DNA of 64,000 bases from a candidate division FCPU426 bacterium (GTDB lineage Bacteria; Oederibacteriota; Muellerivitia; Muellerivitales; Muellerivitaceae): positions 22,374 through 86,373 of the forward strand of contig JASHNQ010000050.1 in assembly GCA_030041545.1 (NCBI GenBank), given 5' to 3'. The position numbers and the translations under genes were made by a program. Below are positions 9,008 to 62,411 of this stretch, one piece after another. Numbering within the stretch: the stretch's first letter is position 1; each line of letters opens with the position of its first letter. The notes below the pieces were generated by a model that was given only the letters and a program-made list of their open reading frames with translations, was not told where the DNA came from and did not search any database.

Positions 9008-9132
9008 GGGAATCGGCCTCCGGGATGCGGTTGGATTGTAATGGGAGCGCCATGGTACATGGATTCGGCGTGGAATACGACAAGAAGCGATGGGGGGTAG
9101 TGCATCAGTTTCGTTTCAACAAAAATCTCAGA

Positions 9133-9222
9133 CACCCCTCACCCTACCCTCTCCCCCAAGGGGCGAGGGTTTTTGCGGGTATTTCCCCCTCTCCCTTGAG
9201 GGGAGAGGGAGGGGTGAGGGTG
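9133..9222. repeat. GGGGAGAGGG-core palindromic repeat, copy A (modules X-Y)
   Basis: cacccctcaccctaccctctcccccaaggggcgagggt ... ccccctctcccttgaggggagagggaggggtgagggtg. The same modules recur near 43.3, 46.2, 51.6 and 61.4 kb. Confidence 0.7.
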
Positions 9223-9297
9223 AAGTTGGATTAGGTCATTCAAACTGAGACACTACCCGATCGAGAGGTTAAACTCCCGGAAACTGTTTAAATACGT

Positions 9298-16446: not shown

Positions 16447-16575
16447 AACGCTTACCACAAAGTTCACGAAGGACACAAAGTGAAGCATGGAAACGTCGGG
16501 AAAACCTAAGGTTTTTAACTTCGTGTCCTTTGTGCCGATTCACCTTGTGGTGAGCGTTTTTGGTTAGGGACTCTA
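16447..16575. repeat. compound palindromic element P1 (CACAAAGT-family arms within ctaacaaaaa-type outer inverted repeats)
   Basis: cttaccacaaagttcacgaaggacacaaagt ... aacttcgtgtcctttgtgccgattcaccttgtggtgagcg tttttggttagggactc; near-identical reverse-complement copy at 18876..19000. Confidence 0.7.
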
Positions 16576-28439: not shown

Positions 28440-29310
28440 GGGCACTGGCGCATATGCGTTAGAATCCGGTGGCTTTTCCAACCCTTTAGGATTGGGCCTC
28501 AGTCCGGCTTTCTTGGCTATGTTTCCAGCGCCCCCTCATCAGTACGTGACCTTTTCGATCATACGGCTTTCCGACAACCTTTCCTCCGTCGGCTTTGCGG
28601 GTTCTGCTTTCTCTTGGCCGCTCGGCATAGTTCTTGTTGAAGATTACGCGCTTTTGTCCTTCAGAGTTGTTAGCCGTTTCCGGCATTCTCCAGCGCCACC
28701 CTTCTTGAATGCACGTGGTTGAAGCAGGGGACCTTCCCTCGGGAGAGGTTTTGTTGTCCTCCCCCTCTAAGCGGTACTATTTCCCCCTCCGACTTCCTCC
28801 CGTCACGCCTCCCTTTCGGTCGCCCTTATAGGAGCCGCTCTTTTAACGGGTAGGATCTCCCAGGTTGATGCATGAGCCTTTTCAGCGTTCCGCTCCCCAT
28901 ACGCCGGAGGATTTGCCTCACCCAATCCTGTTTCAGGGTGAGATTGTTGCCTTCGCCGGTGGACACGCGGCTCGGCCTCCCCTGTAGCCTTTCGGCGGAC
29001 TCTTCACGACGCGGCAGGATTCACTTCATGTTGCGGACTGCGGAGTTGTTCCCTTCCTTTCGAAGGTTTATGACCTCGTTTCGGACAAAGCCTCTCGACT
29101 TTGCCACGGAGGCTGACTTCGGGGCCCTCAGGCGGTTACCCCGTCAGGACTTGGTCCATATCGAACCTCACCTGCTGGCTACTGCACCCTTGTTCCTGGC
29201 ACACTGTCCACGACGGGTCCCAATCGTGGACACTCAAAATCAGCTGTACCTTTTTACAACTTCCTCCGTCTCTTTTGAGGCTCATTCCCATCAATAGCTA
29301 TTTTCCAAAT
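28440..29310 (-). other. ORF-free, lower-GC region; candidate structured RNA or degenerate group II intron fragment (unresolved)
   Basis: ~0.9 kb with only short low-complexity ORFs; plus strand pyrimidine-rich, so the minus transcript would be purine-rich; reverse complement of ~28548..28582 reads AAGCCGUAUGAUCGAAAAGGUCACGUACUGAUG, partly matching the group II domain V consensus GAGCCGUAUGCGAUGAAAGUCGCACGUACGGUUC. Confidence 0.3.
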
Positions 29311-33643: not shown

Positions 33644-33660
33644 GAAATCGTTCCCAAAAA

Positions 33661-33772
33661 CGAATTATGAATTATGAATTTTGAATTTTGAATTGCGGTT
33701 GGTTTCGCTTCCAAATTCGAATCGAAATTCTTCTTACTATAATTCAAAATTGAGAATTCAAAATTCAAAATT
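33661..33772. repeat. AT-rich compound palindrome Q1 (GAATTWTGAATT tandem-unit arms)
   Basis: gaattatgaattatgaattttgaattttgaatt ... aattcaaaattgagaattcaaaattcaaaatt, between the DUF374 gene start and the lpxB end. Confidence 0.65.
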
Positions 33773-34922
33773 AGCCTTTCAACAGCTTCAGGATTTCCCG
33801 GGCGACATTTTCAGAGGCTTTGGGCGGGCGGGCAATGCTCTTTTTGATTTTTTGGAAGGCCTTGGTTTGGCGGTCCCGGAAAGCCTTTTGGTCCAAAAGC
33901 CGGTGGGTTTCCTCGACGAGGCGCTTGGCCGTGGCCTTTTCCTGGAGAAGCTCGGTGACCACCGTCTGGCCCGCCAAGAGGTTGACCAAAGAGACGTTTT
34001 TTACCCTCAAAAGCCCCTTCACCAGCCAACCCGTGACGGCCGCCACCTTGTAAACCACCACCATGGGCGTTTTTAAAAGAGCCGTTTCCAGGGTGCTAGT
34101 GCCGGATTTAACCCAAGCCACATCGCAGGCCTTGCGTAGGTCGTAGGCCGGCCCCTCCACGAAAAAAAAAGGGTCGTCGGGGGTCAAGCCGTGAAAATCG
34201 TCCTGCTCCAACCCATGGGATTTGGGCACGATAAAGGCCGCGTCCGGGCAGGCCTTGCGCAGCAGCCGGGAGGCCTTTAAAAATAGCGGCCAAAGCCTTT
34301 CGATCTCGTCCTTGCGGCTTCCGGGCATGGCGCAAACCACGGGAAAGCGGGAATAGGAAATGCCCTTTTCCTCCAAAACAGCCTTTCGGTGGATGGGCCC
34401 AAGGTCTATCTCCTCCACCAACGGGTTTCCCACGTAAACCGCTTGGATGCCATGCTTGCGGAAATAAGCCGTCTCAAAAGGGAAAATGACAAGGAGCTTC
34501 CGCAGGATTTTTTTCATCACCTTGACCCGGCCCTCGTTCCAGGCCCAGACCTTGGGCGCGATGTAATAGCAAACGGGCACCTTGAGCCGGTAGGCGGCTT
34601 GCGCCAGCCGCAGGTTGAAACCGGGGTAATCCACTAGGAAAAGGAGGTCGGGTTTTTCGGCCTTCAGCCAGTTTTCGCAATCCCTGAGGCGCCTCAAACT
34701 GGCCGGAAGGTGCCGGAGGACCTCCGCGAAACCCATCACGGCCTTGGAGGTGAGGTCTTCCCGCGCTTCCATGCCCGCTTTCGCCATGCGGGGACCGCCA
34801 AAGCCGAAAATCCTTAATTTTTTATTCTTTCCAAGGAGCGCCCGAATGACCCTGGACGCGTGAAGGTCGCCGGAGGCTTCGCCGGCGACCATCAGGATGG
34901 ATCGGGGTTGGGGAGAGCGCAT
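33771..34922 (-). CDS. lpxB: lipid-A-disaccharide synthase
   Basis: ILMVAGEASGDLHASRVIRAL N-terminal motif and LpxB length. Confidence 0.85.
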   Translation of the reverse strand: MRSPQPRSILMVAGEASGDLHASRVIRALLGKNKKLRIFGFGGPRMAKAGMEAREDLTSKAVMGFAEVLRHLPASLRRLRDCENWLKAEKPDLLFLVDYPGFNLRLAQAAYRLKVPVCYYIAPKVWAWNEGRVKVMKKILRKLLVIFPFETAYFRKHGIQAVYVGNPLVEEIDLGPIHRKAVLEEKGISYSRFPVVCAMPGSRKDEIERLWPLFLKASRLLRKACPDAAFIVPKSHGLEQDDFHGLTPDDPFFFVEGPAYDLRKACDVAWVKSGTSTLETALLKTPMVVVYKVAAVTGWLVKGLLRVKNVSLVNLLAGQTVVTELLQEKATAKRLVEETHRLLDQKAFRDRQTKAFQKIKKSIARPPKASENVAREILKLLKG

Positions 34923-43282: not shown

Positions 43283-43366
43283 CACCCCTCATCCCCCCCT
43301 CTCCCCCAAGGGGCGAGGGTGACGAGTACCCCTTCTCCCTTGAGGGGAGAAGGATGGGATGAGGGT
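43283..43366. repeat. GGGGAGAGGG-core palindromic repeat, copy B (modules X-Y)
   Basis: cacccctcatccccccctctcccccaaggggcgagggt gacgagta ccccttctcccttgaggggagaaggatgggatgagggtg. Confidence 0.7.
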
Positions 43367-43426
43367 GATTTTTTCTGGTTCAAATCACCCGGCGCCTTCC
43401 GGCGGGCCCTGGCTCACAATGACGCC

Positions 43427-45332: not shown

Positions 45333-45418
45333 CGAAGACACGAAGTACGCAAAGAACGACTAAAAGTTTTATTTTTAACCACTTTTTGCCTTTTTCGCGT
45401 GCTTCGCGCTTTCGCGGT
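45333..45418. repeat. compound palindromic element P8 (CGCGAAG/CACGAAG tandem-unit arms)
   Basis: cgaagacacgaagtacgcaaagaacg ... ttcgcgtgcttcgcgctttcgcgg, in the hisA-hisH gap. Confidence 0.6.
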
Positions 45419-46044
45419 TAATTTATTTCGACTAAGGTTTTGAAGTTTTCGTAAATCTTGAGCCCGACCGTTTGGCTCTTTTCGGGGTGGAACTGGGTGC
45501 CGAACACGTTCTTTTCCCAAACCATGCAGGTGAAATCCACTCCATAGGAGCATTGGGCGGCGACAATGGATGGGTTTTCCGGAACCACGTAATAAGAGTG
45601 AACGAAATAAAGGAAATCGCCGTCTTTAACCCCTTTTAGCAGGGGATTCCCGTTTTTCTTGACCTGGATTTGGTTCCAACCCATATGAGGTACTTTTTGG
45701 CCCTGGGCAAACTTTACGACCCTGCCTGGAAAGACGCCCAGGCCCTTCGATAAGCCGAATTCCTCGCTTTCGGCGAAAAGCATCTGCAGCCCCACGCAAA
45801 CCCCCAAGAAAGGCTTTCCCGAAGCGATATAAGACTTGATAGCCTTAGCCAGGTCTGACCGGTTCATGGCGTCCATGGAATCCTTGAAGGCCCCCACGCC
45901 GGGCAAAACCACGCCGTCGGATTTTTCCACGTCCCTCCAGTCGGACGTCACATGGGTCTTGGCCCCAACCTTTTCCAGGGCCTTGGCCACGCTGTGCAGG
46001 TTGCCCACGCCGTAATCCACGACAGTTATCATTAAAAACCCCAT
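45418..46044 (-). CDS. hisH: imidazole glycerol phosphate synthase glutamine amidotransferase subunit
   Basis: Canonical HisH (ITVVDYGVGNLHSVAKAL...GVCVGLQ). Confidence 0.9.
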   Translation of the reverse strand: MGFLMITVVDYGVGNLHSVAKALEKVGAKTHVTSDWRDVEKSDGVVLPGVGAFKDSMDAMNRSDLAKAIKSYIASGKPFLGVCVGLQMLFAESEEFGLSKGLGVFPGRVVKFAQGQKVPHMGWNQIQVKKNGNPLLKGVKDGDFLYFVHSYYVVPENPSIVAAQCSYGVDFTCMVWEKNVFGTQFHPEKSQTVGLKIYENFKTLVEIN

Positions 46045-46290
46045 CTCTTACCACAAAGTAGACGAAGTACACAAAGTAAAGAATGAAAAACCTTTATGTT
46101 TTACTTCGTGGACTTAGAGACTCTAACAAAACCCTGTTTTTAAGGAATATCTCCCTCTCCCTTGAGGGGAGAGGGATGGGGTGAGGGTGGCAACTGCAGG
46201 GTTTTCCACACCTCTCACCCTACCCTCTCCCGCAAGGGGCGAGGGTCTGCGGCGGTTTTGTTAGAGTCTCTTAGTGTACTTTGTGGTGAG
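46045..46290. repeat. compound palindromic element P5 interrupted by a nested MITE-like insertion
   Basis: Left arm tcttaccacaaagtagacgaagtacacaaagt...ttttacttcgtggactta, then the insertion, then right arm ttagtgtactttgtggtgagag. Confidence 0.65.
46117..46270. mobile_element. MITE-like element copy C (GAGACTCTAACAAAACC terminal inverted repeats, GGGGAGAGGG core, modules Y-X) with TTA target duplication
   Basis: gagactctaacaaaaccctgttttt...core...ggttttgttagagtctc flanked by tta/tta; near-identical to copy D at 61389..61542. Confidence 0.65.
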
Positions 46291-46302
46291 AGTTATTAAT
46301 TG

Positions 46303-46896
46303 TTACAAGTTGCCTTTGGTGGAAGGGATTCCCTTCACCTTGGCGTCGTGCGCCACCGCCATCTTGAATGCCCGGGCGAAACTCTTGAAGGCCGCTTCCA
46401 CAATATGATGGCTGTTGCGGCCGTGTATCTTCTCCAGGTGCAGGTTGAACTTGCCGTTGTCCGCCACCGCCCGGAAGAAATCCTCCACCAGTTCGGCGTC
46501 GAAGTGGCCGATGCGTTTCTTGACCGCCAGGTCCAGGGCGAAGTTGATGTAGTTGCGGCCACCCAGGTCCACCACGGCCCGCACCAGGGCCTCGTCCAGG
46601 GGCACGTAAAAGAAACCGAACCGGGAAATGCCGGCCTTGTCCCCCAAGGCCTTTTCCAAGGCCATCCCCAGGCAGATGCCGATGTCCTCCACCGTGTGGT
46701 GGTCATCGATATGGGTGTCGCCCTTGGCCGCGACTTTCAGGTCGAACCCGCTGTGTTTGCTGAAGGCCTCCAGCATGTGGTTGAGGAAGGGCACGGGCGA
46801 CTTGACCTGGTGGGCGCCGGTCCCGTCCAAATCCAGCACAAGGTCTATCTGGGTCTCTTTTGTTTTTCGGCTGATTTTTCCGATGCGGTGTGACAA
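46303..46896 (-). CDS. hisB: imidazoleglycerol-phosphate dehydratase
   Basis: Canonical HisB motifs (HIDDHHTVED...). Confidence 0.9.
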   Translation of the reverse strand: MSHRIGKISRKTKETQIDLVLDLDGTGAHQVKSPVPFLNHMLEAFSKHSGFDLKVAAKGDTHIDDHHTVEDIGICLGMALEKALGDKAGISRFGFFYVPLDEALVRAVVDLGGRNYINFALDLAVKKRIGHFDAELVEDFFRAVADNGKFNLHLEKIHGRNSHHIVEAAFKSFARAFKMAVAHDAKVKGIPSTKGNL

Positions 46897-46907
46897 AGGA
46901 AACTTCC

Positions 46908-46983
46908 TTAAGTTAGGGGTTAGGAATGAGGAGTTAGGAGTTTACGGATTTCACTCCTCACTTCTAACTCCCAACTCATAACT
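46908..46983. repeat. palindromic element R1 (GAGTTAGGA-type arms) overlapping the hisC 3' end
   Basis: gttaggggttaggaatgaggagttaggagt ttacggatttc actcctcacttctaactcccaactcataac. Confidence 0.6.
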
Positions 46984-49500: not shown

Positions 49501-49606
49501 CGCCAATTTTGAATTTTTAGTTTTAAATTTTAAATATTGGTGGTTTTCGATCAAAGATCGAAAACTTCCACAATTTAAAATTCAAAATTCATAATTCAAA
49601 ATTTCA
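49501..49606. repeat. AT-rich compound palindrome Q3 with perfect inner hairpin
   Basis: aattttgaatttttagttttaaattttaaatatt ... ggttttcgatcaaagatcgaaaac ... aatttaaaattcaaaattcataattcaaaattt, in the hisD-murA gap. Confidence 0.65.
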
Positions 49607-50863: not shown

Positions 50864-50885
50864 GAAAACCCCCAAAATCAAATGG

Positions 50886-51010
50886 AACCACAAAGGCACT
50901 AAGGGCACAAAGTAAATCCAAAACGATTTTGAGTTAAAACTAAAAAAGCCGTCCTAAGACGGCCTTTCAATGTTTAGAAAATTTTCGACTTTCTTGGTGC
51001 CCTTGGTGCC
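50886..51010. repeat. compound palindromic element P6 with perfect inner hairpin
   Basis: ggaaccacaaaggcactaagggcacaaagt ... gccgtcctaagacggc ... cttggtgcccttggtgcctttgtggttc, between the rnpB 3' end and the murA start. Confidence 0.65.
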
Positions 51011-51040
51011 TTTGTGGTTCAATGCCTTTGAAAATAAAAA

Positions 51041-51507
51041 AAGAAGCAGGTCATAAGCCGAATTCTGTTAAGTGTGATCATTTCTCTCGCGGGGTCCGTT
51101 GCCGGCCCCGTCGATGCGATCTTACCCGAAGGCCTCCCCTTCCCGTGAAGGAAAGGGATGGGACGGACCGCCCCAAAGCCTCCCTATTTGATCTTGCTCC
51201 GGATGGGGTTTGCCATGCCGCCCCACTTGCGTGGGGGCGCGGTGGGCTCTTACCCCACCTTTTCACCCTTACCCTTCGACTCGGCCTTACGGCCTCGCTC
51301 AGGGCGGGCCCCTTTAGGGAACCTGCTCTGGTCTCGCCAACGGGCGGTTTGTTTTCTGTGGCACTTTCCTTCAACCCAGTCCTCATCACCAAAGGTTAGA
51401 GGAAGGCTGGGCCGACCGGGCGTTACCCGGCATCCTGTCCTGCGGAGTTCGGACTTTCCTCACCCCCGGGCCCAAAAGGCCGGGAGCGCGATCACGGACC
51501 TGCTTCC
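51041..51507 (-). ncRNA. rnpB: RNase P RNA (bacterial type A)
   Basis: Minus-strand transcript: P1 GGAAGCAGGUCC pairs with GGACCUGCUUC; P4 5' strand GAGGAAAGUCCGAACUCC; GGGUAACGCC; P4 3' strand ACAGAAUUCGGCUUAUGACC; U-tract after the 3' end. Only spurious ORFs overlap. Confidence 0.85.
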
Positions 51508-51591
51508 AAGGGCATAATAGGGGTAAATCCGGCTGAAATCCAGCTTGGCAAACCCGCGGTAGTGGTTCAGTTTGAATGAACCAATCCAGCT

Positions 51592-51700
51592 TCACCCTCA
51601 CCCCGCCCTCTCCCCTCAAGGGAGAGGTGGAAATACACACAAAACCCTCGCCCCTTGAGGGAGCCCTTCGAGGGCCTCAGGGCAGGAGGGTAGGCTTGCG
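51592..51700. repeat. degenerate GGGGAGAGGG-family repeat, copy E
   Basis: caccctcaccccgccctctcccctcaagggagaggtgg ... ccctcgccccttgagggagccc. Confidence 0.5.
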
Positions 51701-51809
51701 GTGAGCGACTCGTGGTGAGCAAAGTCGAACCACCGAAGGGAGTCGAAACCGGTGAGGGGTGTCTAGATGTTTGTGCTGAAATGAAACTGATACACCACCC
51801 AAACCCCTT

Positions 51810-52662: not shown

Positions 52663-52688
52663 GGCCTTAAACCCCTAAACAAAATCCC

Positions 52689-52795
52689 TCTTACCACAAA
52701 GTACACAACGGACACGAAGTTTAAACCTTTACTTTTTCCCAAATGTTCTACTTCTTTAAACTTTGTGTACTTCGTGAACTTGGTGGTGAGAGTTT
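52689..52795. repeat. compound palindromic element P7 (CACAAAG/CACGAAG arms)
   Basis: ctcttaccacaaagtacacaacggacacgaagttt ... aaactttgtgtacttcgtgaacttggtggtgagag. Confidence 0.7.
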
Positions 52796-52815
52796 AAAGG
52801 TGTTGTTACAGTCTT

Positions 52816-55269: not shown

Positions 55270-56499
55270 ATGGAAAGTAAAACACCCAACCTATCCCGTA
55301 GGGATTTCCTCAAGCTCAGCGGCGCGGCCATGGCGGGCCTGGCCTATTGGTCCATGCCCCCCTGGCTCCACGCTGCGGCCAGCCTTTCGGCAAGCAAGTC
55401 CAAAACCCTGGTGGTGCTCTTCCAAAGGGGCGCGGCCGACGGGTTGAATATCCTGGTGCCCTTCAAGGACCCCCTCTACCAAAAGGCCCGGCCCACCCTG
55501 GGTTTGGCCTATGCCGGGGGAGGGGTGCTGGATCTGGATGGTTCTTTCGGGCTTCACCCTTCCCTTGCCCCGCTTTTGCCGCTTTGGAAATCCGGCCAGC
55601 TGGCCTTTGTCCATGCCGCCGGATCCCCCAACCCCACCCGGTCCCATTTCGACGCCCAAGACAACATGGAATCCGGGACTCCCTTCAACAAGGGGACTTC
55701 CGACGGATGGCTCAACCGAAGCCTCACTTGCCTGCCCTCGGCGGGCACCGACCCCCTTTGCGCCATCGCCTTTTCCGCCCGCCAGCCCCGTATCTTGCAG
55801 GGAGGGTTTCCGGTGGCGTCCATTGACAACCTGGAAAACTACGGCTTCACCCACGGCCCCATGGACCTGGACGCGCTGCAAAGGATGTACGGGGATGCTT
55901 CCGGTTCCCTGCTTTCCAAAGCTGGGCGCCAAACCTTTGATACCGTGAGCCGCGTGCGGGACATCCTGAAATCAAGCCCGGCCGCCCCCGAATCCGCGGG
56001 TTACGGCTATGGCGACTTCAACCACAGGCTTTCGGACCTGGCCCGGATCCTCAAATCCGGGGCGGGCGTCAAGGCCGCTTTCCTGGATATCGGCGGCTGG
56101 GACCACCATAACGAGGAAGGTTACCGGCTCGACTACTTGTTAAGGGAATGGTCGAAGGGGTTGGCGGCCTTTTGGAGGGACTTGGGCGACAAGGCTTCCG
56201 GCGTGGTGATGGTTTCCATGACCGAATTCGGCAGGACCCTGGCGGAAAACGGCGCCCGGGGCACGGACCACGGGAGGGGCGGAGTGATGTTCCTGATGGG
56301 CGGCCCGGTCAAGGGCGGCAAGGTTTACGGGAAATGGCCGGGCTTGGAGACGGAAAACCTGGAGGATGGCCGCGACCTGAAGGTGACCACCGACTTTAGG
56401 CAGGTGCTCTCCGAGGTGCTCGCCGGTCATTTGGGGATTCAAAGGCAGGCCTCGGTATTCCCGGATTTCAATCCGGGTCCGGCCTTGGGGTGGATTTGA
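55270..56499 (+). CDS. DUF1501 domain-containing protein (Tat signal)
   Basis: SRRDFLKLSGAAMAGLA twin-arginine signal; AGGAGG 5 nt upstream; canonical DUF1800-DUF1501 pairing. Confidence 0.8.
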   Translation: MESKTPNLSRRDFLKLSGAAMAGLAYWSMPPWLHAAASLSASKSKTLVVLFQRGAADGLNILVPFKDPLYQKARPTLGLAYAGGGVLDLDGSFGLHPSLAPLLPLWKSGQLAFVHAAGSPNPTRSHFDAQDNMESGTPFNKGTSDGWLNRSLTCLPSAGTDPLCAIAFSARQPRILQGGFPVASIDNLENYGFTHGPMDLDALQRMYGDASGSLLSKAGRQTFDTVSRVRDILKSSPAAPESAGYGYGDFNHRLSDLARILKSGAGVKAAFLDIGGWDHHNEEGYRLDYLLREWSKGLAAFWRDLGDKASGVVMVSMTEFGRTLAENGARGTDHGRGGVMFLMGGPVKGGKVYGKWPGLETENLEDGRDLKVTTDFRQVLSEVLAGHLGIQRQASVFPDFNPGPALGWI

Positions 56500-56511
56500 T
56501 AAATGAAGTCT

Positions 56512-57501
56512 TTATTCAGTCGCTTTTAGGATATTTTTAGCTAATTTCTTAAAATCTTCGTAACAATCTTTAACAGCACTAACATGAGCACCTATTGCAC
56601 CATCAGCAGGTTTTAAAAAAAACATCGGCTTACGAGCTTCCATTGCCATTGGCATCAAGCTTCGATAATGTTTAATAGTAGAAAAACGATACGGATCATT
56701 GTCGGTGGCGGGGGCAGAATTTTCGCTTTGTTCCAAAATATAACTTCGATAGTACATTGGAACTTTTTTTATCCATCTGTCATAAGCTTTAACTGGACGA
56801 TCCTGACGAATCGCATGTTGCATTACAACATAACCAATAGGCTTCATCGTACCTTTCGGTATTAATAAGTCTTTTGATATTTTCTTTTGATTTTTTACTT
56901 TTTGACGGCTTGCCCATTCTTCACGCCAATTGACTAGTGTAGGGCCCAAATTTCTCAACCCTTGAAGCGAAAACAAATCGGGAGCCAATGGGATAACAAC
57001 AAATTCTGCAGAAATAAGAGCCGATCTGTTTATAGCACCAAGATTTGGCCCAACATCAACCAATACTAAATCCGCTTTATTTTCATTCGATGCTTTTAAC
57101 AAAATTCTATAAAAAGCGGAAACTGCTCTAAAGGATGCTTCGTCTCCATCCATACAACGCGGCCAAGCATCTGACAATTTCGCTTCAAAATTCGACAATT
57201 CTAGGTCACCAGGTATGATCCCTAAATGTTTATTGATTCTCTCAACGTTGGGATCACCTATATCACCCGTCCCCTTTTGAATCGGATTTACCGCACCTTG
57301 AATGCTCAAATAGTGAGGGCCATCTGGCCACAATTCTTCCAACCGATTTTCTGCCAAAAACATGGATGTCAAATTTGCTTGGGGATCCAAATCTGCCGCT
57401 ATCACATTCAAACCCAATTCGGTGTACATCCAAGCCAAGTGATATACCAAAGAAGTTTTTCCGACACCTCCCTTGTTGTTAAAGAATGCAATGGTTTTCA
57501 T
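56512..57501 (-). CDS. ParA/MinD-family ATPase with ~100-aa C-terminal extension (low-GC island)
   Basis: MKTIAFFNNKGGVGKTSLVYHLA deviant Walker A; AT-rich codon usage unlike the rest of the window. Confidence 0.75.
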   Translation of the reverse strand: MKTIAFFNNKGGVGKTSLVYHLAWMYTELGLNVIAADLDPQANLTSMFLAENRLEELWPDGPHYLSIQGAVNPIQKGTGDIGDPNVERINKHLGIIPGDLELSNFEAKLSDAWPRCMDGDEASFRAVSAFYRILLKASNENKADLVLVDVGPNLGAINRSALISAEFVVIPLAPDLFSLQGLRNLGPTLVNWREEWASRQKVKNQKKISKDLLIPKGTMKPIGYVVMQHAIRQDRPVKAYDRWIKKVPMYYRSYILEQSENSAPATDNDPYRFSTIKHYRSLMPMAMEARKPMFFLKPADGAIGAHVSAVKDCYEDFKKLAKNILKATE

Positions 57502-58688
57502 TTTTTCCCTCTCAAGATTGCTAGAACATAAGTATCTTCAAAAGAAAAATCAGCTACTGGATTTCCGTTCTTTATCAATGACTCTTGTGCTCTCTCAACC
57601 CCACGGCCAAACTTGTTAACATAACCCAGATTATTCATGGCTTCCGCAATTATCGGATTCCTGTAGGCGGTTTGTTTCGGAAAATTTTTGGGAGTGGCTT
57701 CCCCGTACAAGCCACCTGGACTTTGAATTTCTATTCTATCTTCGAACCAATAAAATCGAACAGGGGCGGTAGCCTCATAATCTCTGTGCATCATCCCGTT
57801 CATAAGTATTTCTCGTATCGCTATTTCGGGATAATCTTTTATATCTTTATCTCGTAGAGCATCTTCCCTAACAACAGACTTAGTAATTTGAATTGAAACA
57901 AAAGAATTTAAATCTTTTAGAACCGTCAACAAATCCCCAGAAAATCTTTTGTTATCCAATACGTCATCAGAAAGTTTTTTCCCATTAAAACGGACAAACT
58001 CAACATAGGCGCCAGGAAACCAGTTTAGTGGGTTTTTACCAAATAGAAGCATTCCAGCATTTGTGGGGCAAGATTTTGAGAGGTTAAAAAAACGCAAAGA
58101 AGCCAACTGTAAATCTACGGAACGATGATTTTCAGCGAGCACATCAGAAGCAACCGCAGTTTCTCGATATCCAACCACAAACAGCTCTTGAGATAAATCA
58201 GTGATTGATGAGCCAACACATGGACGAGCATCAAGTGTTTTTGCAGAATCGGTATTTTTCTCAGTTAATCTTCGCTCTTCTTGTAAGGTTGCAAAACCTC
58301 TCCTTGGACCAACGCGAATACACGTCCTGCCTTTGTACCGAACCGGAGTTAATTCCGATGGAAGCACCTCAACAATTGCAATTTCTCCAGTTCTCATTGG
58401 ATGTTCAAGTTTATATACACTCATGATTGGAAATGGTTGGATATTTGCATCGGATCTTAAACTTCCAAGTTGTTCCAATAATAGTTCAGTAACTTTTAAT
58501 CCAGATGCGGTTCCATCTGGATTCACACCAATAAGCAAATATCCGGGTAATCCGTGGTTCGGCAAGTCATTTGAAAATGAACATATAGCTTCACAAAATT
58601 TATCTATATCCTCAGTTGAAATGGTTTTTTCAACTCGATCTTGTTCATCGCTCTTAAGAAGTTTTTTCAATTCTTTGGGAGTTAGCAA
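57498..58688 (-). CDS. Schlafen-like AlbA_2 domain + HATPase_c_4 domain protein (annotated elsewhere as ATP-binding protein / putative regulator)
   Basis: N-terminal ...GYLLIGVNPDGTASGLKV (AlbA_2-like); C-terminal IREILMNGMMHRDYEATAPVRFYWFEDRIEIQSPGGL (HATPase_c_4-like); overlaps the ParA-like gene by 4 nt; low GC. Confidence 0.7.
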   Translation of the reverse strand: MLTPKELKKLLKSDEQDRVEKTISTEDIDKFCEAICSFSNDLPNHGLPGYLLIGVNPDGTASGLKVTELLLEQLGSLRSDANIQPFPIMSVYKLEHPMRTGEIAIVEVLPSELTPVRYKGRTCIRVGPRRGFATLQEERRLTEKNTDSAKTLDARPCVGSSITDLSQELFVVGYRETAVASDVLAENHRSVDLQLASLRFFNLSKSCPTNAGMLLFGKNPLNWFPGAYVEFVRFNGKKLSDDVLDNKRFSGDLLTVLKDLNSFVSIQITKSVVREDALRDKDIKDYPEIAIREILMNGMMHRDYEATAPVRFYWFEDRIEIQSPGGLYGEATPKNFPKQTAYRNPIIAEAMNNLGYVNKFGRGVERAQESLIKNGNPVADFSFEDTYVLAILRGKK

Positions 58689-58763
58689 TTGGACTCCAGT
58701 GAATCAATAAAATGTTAAACATTCATTATCAAATTGTAGTAATCCGATTACAAATTATTAAGG

Positions 58764-59576
58764 TTATCTATTTTTTAAAAGAATTTTTTGGATAGCAAGA
58801 CTATCCCTGAGGACCTGACGGAAGGTCTCGAAGGTGATTTGGGTGGCGGCGTCGGACTTGGCTTTGGGCGGGTCCGGGTGCACCTCCATGAAAAGGCCGT
58901 CCACTCCCACGGCCACCGCCGCCCGCATGAGGTCCGGCGCGTGCTCGCGGGTTCCGCCGCTGGAAGTCCCCTTGGCCGCGGGCTGCTGCACGCTGTGGGT
59001 GCCGTCGAATATAACCGGGCAGCCGGTCTTTTTCATTTCCGGGATGCCCCGGAAATCCACCACCAGGTTGTTGTAGCCGAAGGAAGTTCCCCGTTCGGTA
59101 AGCCAGATGTTCTTCTGGCCCACTTCCATCATCTTGCCGATCACATGGATCATTTCCAAGGGAGCCATGAATTGCGCCTTTTTCACGTTGACCACTTCCC
59201 CATGCCGGGCCGCCTCCCTTAAAAGGCTGGTTTGGCGGGAAAGAAAAGCGGGGATTTGGAGTACGTCAGCCACCTTGGCGGCCGCCTTCACCTCGCCGAT
59301 CTCGTGGATATCCGTTAAAACGGGGATGTTGAATTTCTTTTTCACTAAAGCCAGGTCGGCCAGGCCCTTCTTGAGTCCGGGCCCCCGGAAACCCTTCATC
59401 GAAGTGCGGTTGGCCTTGTCGTAGGAGGATTTGAAGACCAGGGGCACGCCGAACTCGTCCGCGATACCCTTGATGGTCCTGGCGGTCTTTAAAAGAAAAT
59501 CCGTGCCCTCGATCACGCAGGGCCCCGCGATCACGAAGAACTTGCCGTTTTTGCCTAACTGTTTTACGTCGATCAT
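58764..59576 (-). CDS. kdsA: 3-deoxy-8-phosphooctulonate synthase
   Basis: Canonical KdsA; ATG (MIDVKQ) preceded by AAGGGG. Confidence 0.9.
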   Translation of the reverse strand: MIDVKQLGKNGKFFVIAGPCVIEGTDFLLKTARTIKGIADEFGVPLVFKSSYDKANRTSMKGFRGPGLKKGLADLALVKKKFNIPVLTDIHEIGEVKAAAKVADVLQIPAFLSRQTSLLREAARHGEVVNVKKAQFMAPLEMIHVIGKMMEVGQKNIWLTERGTSFGYNNLVVDFRGIPEMKKTGCPVIFDGTHSVQQPAAKGTSSGGTREHAPDLMRAAVAVGVDGLFMEVHPDPPKAKSDAATQITFETFRQVLRDSLAIQKILLKNR

Positions 59577-59587
59577 AAAACCCCTTA

Positions 59588-59697
59588 TCACCGCGAAGAC
59601 ACGAAAACCGCGAAGGAAGATTTAAAAAGGAAAAATGATGTTTTTCAAAACAAAATTTTTTTGCTTTTCTTCGCGAACTTCGCGCCTTCGCGGTTCA
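59588..59697. repeat. compound palindromic element P9 (CGCGAAG tandem-unit arms)
   Basis: caccgcgaagacacgaaaaccgcgaaggaag ... cttttcttcgcgaacttcgcgccttcgcggttca, in the kdsA-pyrG gap. Confidence 0.6.
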
Positions 59698-61314
<1,617 letters not shown>

Positions 61315-61324
61315 TCACTTCCTC

Positions 61325-61610
61325 CCATTGAGTATCGATACCCGTCGCGTCCAATAGTTGTGAGTTTCGAGTGTTGAGTTTTGAGTCAGAGACTCTAACA
61401 AAACCCTGTTTTTAAGAAATATCCCCCTCTCCCTTGAGGGGAGAGGGACGGGGTGAGGGTGGCAACTGCAGGGTTTTCCACACCCCTCACCCTACCCTCT
61501 CCCGCAAGGGGCGAGGGTCTTGGGAGGTTTTGTTAGAGTCTCTTAATGAAATTTTCGGATTCACGGATGAATCCGAAAACACCCACAACTCAAAACTTTT
61601 TTCTCCTCAG
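61325..61610. repeat. palindromic element S1 (GAGTTTTGAGT-type arms, inner hairpin ttttcggattcacggatgaatccgaaaa) interrupted by MITE copy D
   Basis: Left arm gttgtgagtttcgagtgttgagttttgagtca | insertion | right arm ...acccacaactcaaaactttt. Confidence 0.55.
61389..61542. mobile_element. MITE-like element copy D (GAGACTCTAACAAAACC terminal inverted repeats, GGGGAGAGGG core)
   Basis: Near-identical to copy C (46117..46270); flanks tca / tta. Confidence 0.65.
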
Positions 61611-62411
61611 GTACTTTTCAACCTTTCTCACGTCCGCCGGGACATCCACTGCGATGGATTCGACCTTCCGAATGGCCGCGCGGATCACCACCCCGTTCTC
61701 CATGGCCCGCAATTGTTCCAGTTTTTCGGTTAATTCCAGGGGCGTGGGTTTCAAGGTCGCCATCAGTTGAAGCCAGGCGGGCCGGTAGCCGTACAGTCCC
61801 ATGTGTTTATAGGCTTTAGGCATACCGCCGCCCGCGGTGAGCCTAGCCCGCCCTGATCTGCCCCGCGGTGAGCCTGCCTGCCCTGAACTTGTCGAAGGGG
61901 TCGAACCGTCGCGAGGGTAAGGAATAGGCGCCCGCGAGAAATAAAGCACGCCCCCCTTGGGGCCCAAAACCGCCTTGACCACGTTGGGGTCCAGCCATTC
62001 CCTCTTGTCCGCCAGGGGAATCACCACGGTGGACATCAAAACCCTCGGGTCCTTTTGAAGCACTTCCACGACCGCGTCCACGGCCGCCGGAGCCATGACC
62101 GGCTCGTCGCCCTGGATGTTCACGATGATATCGGCCTTTTGATTCCGTACGGCGAAGGCGATCCGGTCCGTGCCGGACTTCAGGGAAGAAGGGGTCATGA
62201 CCGCCTTGGCCCCGGCCTTTTCCACCGCGTCGGCGATCCGCCGGTCGTCCGTGGCGACCCAGACTTCGCTCAATCTTTTGGCTTTTTGGGCCCGGCGGAC
62301 GACCCGGACGATCATGGGCACGCCCGCAATCAACGCGAGGGGCTTTCCGGGGAATCTCTGCGCGCCATATCTCGAAGGAATAACGCCAATAACCTTTTCT
62401 TTGCCCGCCAC
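61590..62411 (-). CDS. kdsB: 3-deoxy-manno-octulosonate cytidylyltransferase with in-frame low-complexity insertion
   Basis: MAGKEKVIGVIPSRYGAQRFPGKPL... canonical KdsB; a ~25-aa insert (DGSTPSTSSGQAGSPRGRSGRARLTAGGG) is encoded by a ~30-bp tandem duplication at ~61831..61890. Confidence 0.85.
   Translation of the reverse strand: MAGKEKVIGVIPSRYGAQRFPGKPLALIAGVPMIVRVVRRAQKAKRLSEVWVATDDRRIADAVEKAGAKAVMTPSSLKSGTDRIAFAVRNQKADIIVNIQGDEPVMAPAAVDAVVEVLQKDPRVLMSTVVIPLADKREWLDPNVVKAVLGPKGGVLYFSRAPIPYPRDGSTPSTSSGQAGSPRGRSGRARLTAGGGMPKAYKHMGLYGYRPAWLQLMATLKPTPLELTEKLEQLRAMENGVVIRAAIRKVESIAVDVPADVRKVEKYLRRKKF

Follow-up and report, generated by a model that had tools for sequence, protein, structure and literature searches.

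The 64,000-nucleotide stretch of DNA analysed here (the window) was found to possess two dispersed copies, C and D, of a non-coding element which is very probably an IS5-family MITE, mobilised in trans by an IS427/IS1031-like DDE transposase from an IS of ~0.89 kb with two frameshifted ORFs. The anatomy of the copies, the target site and duplication across the whole family, the autonomous relatives with an identical terminal inverted repeat (TIR) and the absence of the element from the orthologous spacers of related genomes were all observed. A formerly unclassified repeat can thereby be described, on its TIR kinship, as an IS5-family MITE with a CTWAG/TWA target. It is a mobile element of an ordinary and well-understood kind, and the understanding of transposition is unchanged by it.

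Anatomy and genomic setting of copies C and D

Copies C and D (Table 1) are each 154 bp long, have a G+C content of 56% and are 95.5% identical when aligned over their full length (E = 4e-69), with ~15 kb separating them. Both possess perfect 17-nt TIRs (17/17) of the sequence GAGACTCTAACAAAACC, and the similarity between the copies ends exactly at the TIR tips, the flanking sequences being unrelated. The exact GAGACTCTAACAAAACC sequence occurs at four sites in the window, namely both ends of C and both ends of D; the chance expectation for the window, with up to three mismatches allowed, is 0.16 sites. The sequence-only reading had described two nearly identical copies with terminal inverted repeats, flanked by TTA/TTA in the case of C and by TCA/TTA (one mismatch) in the case of D, and this description was confirmed. 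A further sequence, AAGACTGTAACAACACC (52799-52815, minus strand), agrees with the TIR at 14/17 positions and is situated 6 nt past a P5-like palindrome, with TTA adjoining it on the outside. This could be what remains of a lost copy, a solo relic TIR, or a chance match (0.16 such sites expected).

At 154 bp, the element is within the size limit of MITEs (below ~300-500 bp). No coding capacity was found in it, all six frames being interrupted or without a start codon. As single-stranded DNA it is predicted to fold into one long hairpin of -46 kcal/mol (z = -8.6). Searches of Rfam at the gathering threshold over the whole window returned only RNase P and a group II intron, both away from the element, and a search of 46000-46350 at a relaxed E-value threshold gave no family for the element but only sub-threshold matches to generic miRNA-like hairpins. 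The intron match is to the group II intron D1-D4 domain (RF02003, 64 bits) at 29026-29162 on the minus strand.

Table 1. Features of the two MITE copies, their host palindromes and the related core copies in the window
Feature	Position	Strand	Remarks
Host palindrome P5, 5' arm, loop and proximal 3' arm	46045-46116		hisB-hisH spacer
Left TSD of C, TTA	46114-46116		with its neighbours reads gaC-TTA-Gtg, i.e., a CTTAG target
Copy C	46117-46270		154 bp
Left TIR of C, GAGACTCTAACAAAACC	46117-46133	+	exact; the IS5-family ISs L100 and L041 have the same TIR
Module X (M') of C	46153-46189	+	hairpin CCCTCTCCC-TTGA-GGGGAGAGGG, then GGGGTGAGGGTG
Module Y (M) of C	46209-46245	+	CACCTCTCACCC, then hairpin CCCTCTCCC-GCAA-GGGGCGAGGG; inverted counterpart of X
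Right TIR of C	46254-46270	-	17/17 complementary to left TIR
Right TSD of C, TTA	46271-46273		
Host palindrome P5, distal 3' arm	46274-46292		cut off from the rest by the MITE
Predicted MITE-free junction			flanks joined directly: ...ggacTTAgtgtac...
Host structure S1	61357-61596		kdsB-pyrG spacer; outer arms 61357-61385 and 61580-61596, inner hairpin 61552-61579
Left flank of D, TCA	61386-61388		differs from right flank
Copy D	61389-61542	+	154 bp, perfect TIRs; X 61425-61461, Y 61481-61517
Right flank of D, TTA	61543-61545		
Copy A	9096-9257	+	Y 9133-9169, X 9187-9222; enclosed by another inverted repeat, GGTAGTGCATCAGTTT.../...AAACTGAGACACTACC
Copy B	43283-43367	+	Y-X order, more diverged; without both TIR types; possible CGTCATYGYRAG-type inverted repeat further out
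Copy E	51558-51799	-	same second family as A; ~85-nt insertion within module Y

Copy C is located in the 258-nt spacer between hisB (46303-46896) and hisH (45418-46044), within a minus-strand his operon of the order hisD-C-B-H-A-F. Copy D occupies a 275-nt spacer flanked by the minus-strand genes kdsB (61590-62411) and pyrG (59698-61314), so that both copies lie between co-directional genes. A 4-kb stretch at 56001-60000 was observed to have a G+C content of 0.445-0.488, compared with ~0.58, and may have been horizontally acquired.

When C and one TTA were removed in silico, an imperfect hairpin of ~90 nt, P5, was restored, with the TTA lying within its 3' arm. Removal of D restored the nested hairpin S1, the insertion point being the internal loop between the outer arms and the inner hairpin. 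Both results agree with the original view of the element as nested in pre-existing palindromes.

The nearest relatives are MAGs with 84-92% protein identity in HisB and PyrG (next-best PyrG matches, 66%) and with the same gene order around both spacers. Their hisB-hisH spacers measure 87, 127, and 156 nt and their kdsB-pyrG spacers 102 and 106 nt, with a palindrome present and the MITE absent at both loci, while the window spacers of 258 and 275 nt equal 101 and 118 nt plus 157. Since the spacers of the relatives are unalignable with those of the window, they demonstrate absence of the MITE rather than a base-exact empty site. The comparison with empty sites in relatives which had been proposed gave the expected absence of the element, and not the exact junction. 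The two insertions, into the his operon and the kdsB-pyrG spacer, are recent and could serve as strain markers.

Transposase family and target site

A scan for the 17-mer identified 52 loci in 185,579 species genomes and at least 120 further loci in metagenome contigs. At most loci among the matches listed, an inverted partner copy was found 77-320 bp away, which identifies them as MITEs, and at least eight unrelated cores were seen between GAGACTCTAACAAAACC TIRs in those matches. The hosts include Planctomycetota, Latescibacterota, Acidobacteriota, Bacillota, and others, with ~12 copies in one Brocadiaceae MAG. In uncultured phyla (Planctomycetota, Latescibacterota, and the lineage of the window), a very widespread set of small ISs and MITEs could be annotated with the 17-mer TIR and its TWA flanks as the signature. 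One IS with these TIRs is very abundant in a single metagenome (Ga0315280/Ga0315282), dozens of whose contigs break ~100-125 nt inside either of its ends (L060, L062, L066, L068, L069, and ~40 more loci). A separate MITE of 88 bp (core ccgcattccgccgtttgcggcggg...) with the flanks CTAA...TAAG is abundant in the Ga03073xx samples.

At four loci among the matches listed (L100, L041, L065, and L130) the partner repeat lies 886-888 bp away. The element at L100:34-920 is 887 bp long, with both TIRs matching at 17/17 positions, and contains orfA and orfB, which overlap at a slippery run and match the NCBIfam model NF033580, "IS5 family transposase" (5.5e-31 and 1.5e-29, respectively). The last codons and the stop codon of its transposase lie within the right TIR (..GGG TTT TGT TAG). 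The element at L041:540-1427 is 888 bp long; its frame-fused protein matches NF033580 at 2.8e-65 and its ORFs match DUF4096 and DDE_Tnp_1. Both elements thus carry the exact 17-mer together with a transposase matching NF033580, DUF4096, and DDE_Tnp_1. The two transposases are only 48-50% identical, with an identical TIR, which indicates that the TIR is far more conserved than the protein across phyla. The nearest annotated plasmid relatives are all frameshift-split "IS5 family transposase" genes, and one of them, in an IS5-family IS of Burkholderia cenocepacia (NZ_CP011920), has a TIR which begins GAGAC and the flanks TAA/TAA.

Judged by these shared ends, the superfamily of the C/D element is IS5 (IS427/IS1031-type). 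The GAG end and 3-bp repeat fit the IS1031 group. Size and frameshift fit the IS427 group, of which the published accounts (PMC3281130) agree in size, two ORFs, and short repeats, and the subgroup is regarded as provisional. The element had been proposed to be a transposase-mobilised MITE, which is upheld by a TIR common to IS5-family ISs, a family-wide 3-bp T-N-A duplication and the lack of coding capacity. An accompanying suggestion, to search for an IS630/Tc1-mariner or other transposase, names a family which does not fit, as ISs with the same TIR encode IS5-family DDE transposases and the flanks are unlike a TA duplication.

No IS5-family transposase was detected in the 64-kb window by tblastn with the two matching transposases (best E = 0.44). 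A 22-mer specific to the C/D subfamily had no matches in the metagenome contigs, and none of the species-genome loci share more than the TIR and the module with C and D. A matching transposase would be present in this genome now, or would have been so earlier.

The target site was derived from the flanks of the family. Save for about a dozen matches evidently due to chance, the 17-mer is preceded by T-W-A among the matches listed, with T at -3 in 162 of 176 flanks and A at -1 in 161 of 176. Perfect 3-bp duplications were found in 39 of 51 unique complete elements outside the window in these matches (20 TAA, 17 TTA, and 2 TCA). Pairs of TWA/TWA flanks in the matches listed are identical in 37 cases and not so in three; as only about half would be identical without duplication, the TWA triplet is a true duplication. 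The flank consensus is Y-T-W-A, element, T-W-A-R, with outer bases which are mostly C...G, giving a target of YTWAR, at best CTWAG. The IS5-type target is YTAR, and that found here is one base longer. Copy C sits in a perfect CTTAG, one of only eight intergenic CTWAG sites in the window.

The outer bases of D are non-canonical (G...A, in g-TCA...TTA-a), and its flank mismatch is the weakest point of the TSD reading. Given a divergence of 4.5% between C and D, one substitution among the six flank bases of D is unremarkable. A short duplication, given as T[CT]A in the sequence-only reading, is seen at C and, when the flanking triplets are compared over all complete elements, as TAA, TTA or TCA in most of the family, though not in the mismatched D. 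A few family members possess TAA/TTA flanks, contrary to what a strict 3-bp duplication would give.

The same flanks bear on the alternative of an IS630/Tc1-mariner MITE with a TA duplication. IS630 uses CTAG-like targets and the flanks do contain TA. However, the dinucleotides which abut the element are TA/TT in the TTA type and AA/TA in the TAA type, so that a TA-only reading fails, one TIR being abutted by TT or AA. The 3-bp reading fits the 39 elements counted above, and the autonomous elements with this TIR among the matches listed all encode IS5-family transposases, which makes an IS630/Tc1 origin extremely improbable.

In the mechanism proposed for the IS5-family MITE, the transposase would bind the 17-bp TIRs and excise or copy the element, which would integrate at 5'-YTWAR-3', preferably CTWAG, through a 3-nt staggered cut, and repair of the stagger would leave the central TWA duplicated. 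C would have integrated at CTTAG within a subrepeat of the host palindrome, and D at a less canonical site in the kdsB-pyrG spacer, with one of its flanks altered since. The cargo would be an inverted pair of a GC-rich hairpin module of ~37 nt, which is also carried in other TIR frames, and the whole element would fold as a long hairpin and be co-transcribed with the his operon.

Host palindromes and site choice

Nearly all spacers between co-directional genes in this lineage hold a long imperfect palindrome with arms made up of degenerate subrepeats of 7-9 nt (types include CACRAAG, CGCGAAG, CGCCAAG, AATTTTG, and GAGTTAG/GTTGAGT). Such palindromic spacers were observed in the window at 16465-16534, 33656-33779, 46911-46982, 49505-49603, 50882-51023, 52688-52792, and 59590-59694, and in relatives at L053:4591-4679, L055:1799-1927, L056:4594-4751, L179:2898-3001, and L180:9894-10001. 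The orthologous spacers of the relatives carry other palindrome types at the same place, suggesting that the architecture is conserved and the sequence is not.

It had been suggested from the two copies that the element prefers hairpin DNA. Empty sites were reconstructed for 49 family insertions, with the non-coding YTWAR sites of the same contigs (n = 77) as controls. The median fold z was -0.48 for the family insertion sites compared with -0.55 for the non-coding controls, and about three quarters of the family insertions are hosted by unstructured DNA. Values of z <= -2 were obtained for 13 of the 49 empty sites and for 9 of the 77 non-coding controls (OR 2.7, p = 0.052), or for 9 of 109 when all YTWAR sites are taken (p = 0.005). 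The main determinant of site choice is the sequence YTWAR/CTWAG; hairpins are not required for insertion, and the enrichment in structured flanks is borderline. With a YTWAR motif, a largely unstructured set of insertions and an excess of this size, the suggested preference for hairpins is not established.

In the window itself, the empty sites of the two copies have z = -2.2 and -3.7. Between 20 and 23% of the intergenic TWA sites are as structured as site C and 9% are as structured as site D, and the joint chance of both window copies lying in such structure is ~0.03-0.05 (n = 2). This figure, with the family-wide excess at z <= -2, would favour a transposase or element that recognises structure and targets hairpins or cruciforms, hence the location of both copies in palindromes. 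However, the median z is the same as that of the controls, most insertions are unstructured and the strong YTWAR motif accounts for site choice. Furthermore, the CTTAG target of C exists because the arms of P5 consist of degenerate CAC-R/T-AAG subrepeats, with CACTAAG among their natural variants, and P5-type palindromes contain about half of the eight intergenic CTWAG sites. As CTTAG arises from the palindrome subrepeats, sequence specificity alone can place C, and as the spacers of the lineage are almost all palindromic, survivorship in neutral DNA yields the same picture. The hairpin- or REP-targeting elements of the IS200/IS605 and IS110 type also differ in being without TIRs and TSDs. Structure targeting is thus regarded as unlikely, and an apparent "hairpin targeting" can result where a palindromic repeat contains the target motif in its sequence.

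An IS200/IS605 or IS110/IS1111 type for the element itself was ruled out by the perfect TIRs and TSD and by the location of most family insertions outside hairpins.

Core modules, RNA structure and comparison with known systems

Between their TIRs, C and D hold one GC-rich module of ~37 nt twice, as an inverted pair in the order X...Y. Module Y reads CACCYCTCACCC-TA-CCCTCTCCC-GCAA-GGGGCGAGGG, and X, the inverted form, has TTGA in the loop. Partial core matches with the modules in the opposite order were found at 9132-9222, 43297-43367, and 51593-51663 (copies A, B, and E, respectively), as the sequence-only reading had reported. In the X...Y order of C and D, X pairs with Y in a long hairpin, whereas the Y...X order of A, B, and E leads to two small hairpins enclosed by an outer stem of the CACCCCTCACCC/GGGGTGAGGGTG parts.

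The label "core-only", which had been given to these three copies, does not apply to A and E. The latter align with each other end to end and are both bounded by a second inverted repeat, GGTAGTGNNTCAGTTT, for which four exact or near-exact sites were found compared with 0.21 expected. A and E form a second MITE-like family with the same GC-rich cargo and a different TIR; no target duplication is evident at either. Copy E is a near neighbour, at ~50 nt, of the gene for RNase P RNA (51039-51506, minus strand). Recombination between the modules had been invoked for the two orders and is not established, as X-Y and Y-X are simply the two possible arrangements of an inverted dimer, here in different TIR frames, and recombination within the MITE need not be invoked.

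The hisA-hisF spacer of the closest relative (L053:6207-6300) also has a GC-rich module of this type, with an arm of a CGCGAAT-type palindrome on either side; the window has a hisA-hisF spacer of only 45 nt. Planctomycetota MITEs with the same TIR and module type were also identified, in the arrangements TIR-X-Y-TIR (L015) and TIR-X-TIR (L046 and L017). The module pair is thus known from IS5-type TIRs (C and D), a second TIR (A and E), a third context (B) and the Planctomycetota IS5-type MITEs, which suggests that the cargo is a widely shared, exchangeable hairpin module. A bolder proposal, that the module pair (CACCCCTCACCC plus CCCTCTCCC-N4-GGGGNGAGGG plus the inverse) is a cassette moving between unrelated transposon frames, in which case the weak structure enrichment would reflect real structure-assisted integration, is doubtful and rather unlikely. 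If it were true, these uncultured lineages would draw their MITE cargo from a common pool of REP-like hairpins, and selection could act on those hairpins themselves, for example because they stabilise mRNA or attenuate, or because landing and recombination occur preferentially at them.

The modules also raise the alternative of a REP/BIME/REPIN-like system, in which mobility or selection would act on the module pair, its spread would be due to a RAYT-type tyrosine transposase or to recombination, and the outer repeats would be incidental. The cargo does resemble the REPIN/BIME architecture in that a short GC-rich hairpin module is present as an inverted dimer, which occurs in both orders and in several spacers; the pair is found at three other places in the window in opposite order and other frames, and the module recurs in the hisA-hisF spacer of the relative. 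However, C and D share all 154 bp including the TIRs, their similarity stops at the TIR tips, and the repeated unit bears the TIR and TSD signature of a DDE transposon, common to real ISs. No conserved GTAG-type head was seen before the module hairpin and a RAYT gene was not identified here in a non-exhaustive search. A REPIN-like origin is accordingly considered very unlikely, and the IS5-family MITE is retained as the explanation.

On the transcribed strand, the RNA of the hisB-hisH spacer is predicted to adopt a Y-shaped fold of -119 kcal/mol (z = -11), in which a poor U-tract (GAUAUUCCUU) comes after one of the hairpins, and this hairpin has a weak terminator-like score. Owing to the weakness of this site and its poor U-tract, the element is, on this model, probably read through in the his mRNA. 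By analogy with Chunjie and other operon-borne MITEs, for which attenuation and message stabilisation have a precedent (PMC10969869), it could attenuate his transcription or stabilise the upstream message, and may modulate read-through in the operon.

The stable fold, the weak terminator-like hairpin on the transcribed strand and the position of both copies between co-directional genes are also consistent with a reading without mobility, in which a functional structured RNA, or a regulatory hairpin acting as attenuator, terminator or mRNA stabiliser, was duplicated at two loci. This is highly improbable, however, as no Rfam family beyond the generic miRNA-like matches was returned and the relatives are without the element at the same loci; its conservation there throughout the lineage with compensatory changes is not seen. 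The TIR, TSD, and IS kinship of the MITE account for its presence, and any function would be secondary (exaptation).

Among described elements, Chunjie of Geobacter uraniireducens is likewise an operon-borne MITE which leaves the operon intact and forms a very stable RNA hairpin (PMC3184786, PMC10969869). It is AT-rich, however, measures 178-235 bp and has 21-bp TIRs and 9-bp direct repeats (PMC3184786), compared with 17 and 3 bp here, which implies a different transposase family and rules it out as a relative. The Correia elements (CREE) of Neisseria are MITEs of similar size (~100-160 bp) which also lie between genes, are co-transcribed and have target flanks containing TA, but differ in their 26-bp TIR, TA duplication, and core. 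A putative resemblance was noted between the Correia repeat TATAGTGGATTAACAAAAACCGG (also given as TATAGTGGATTAACAAAAACCGGTACGG; PMC5039591) and TWA-GAGACTCTAACAAAACC, which share TA...TAACAAAA(A)CC, a stretch of 10-11 nt. This likeness may hint that the Correia elements are of IS5-type origin.

The eukaryotic Tourist/PIF-Harbinger elements possess an IS5-related DDE transposase, a TTA/TAA 3-bp duplication and short TIRs, comprise many unrelated non-autonomous families with only their TIRs in common and are often nested in repeats. They need a second, Myb-like protein and have another TIR, so that the likeness is one of mechanism and not of membership.

The IS427-group IS5 elements are 832-865 bp long with 13-21-bp inverted repeats and two ORFs (PMC3281130), and those of Paracoccus produce 2-bp repeats (PMC3281130), compared with mostly 3-bp repeats in the GAGACTCTAACAAAACC family. 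The window MITE is without a transposase, and its interior of GC-rich hairpin modules is unrelated to that of IS5 ISs. It is nevertheless with the IS427/IS1031 elements of IS5 (IS1248 and ISPaes1 of Paracoccus; the Burkholderia element of NZ_CP011920) that the family shares a TIR starting GAGAC, a 3-bp TWA/TNA duplication in a YTWAR target, autonomous relatives of ~0.85-0.89 kb in which a frameshift joins two overlapping ORFs and, in the elements with the same TIR, a transposase of the NF033580, DUF4096, and DDE_Tnp_1 type.
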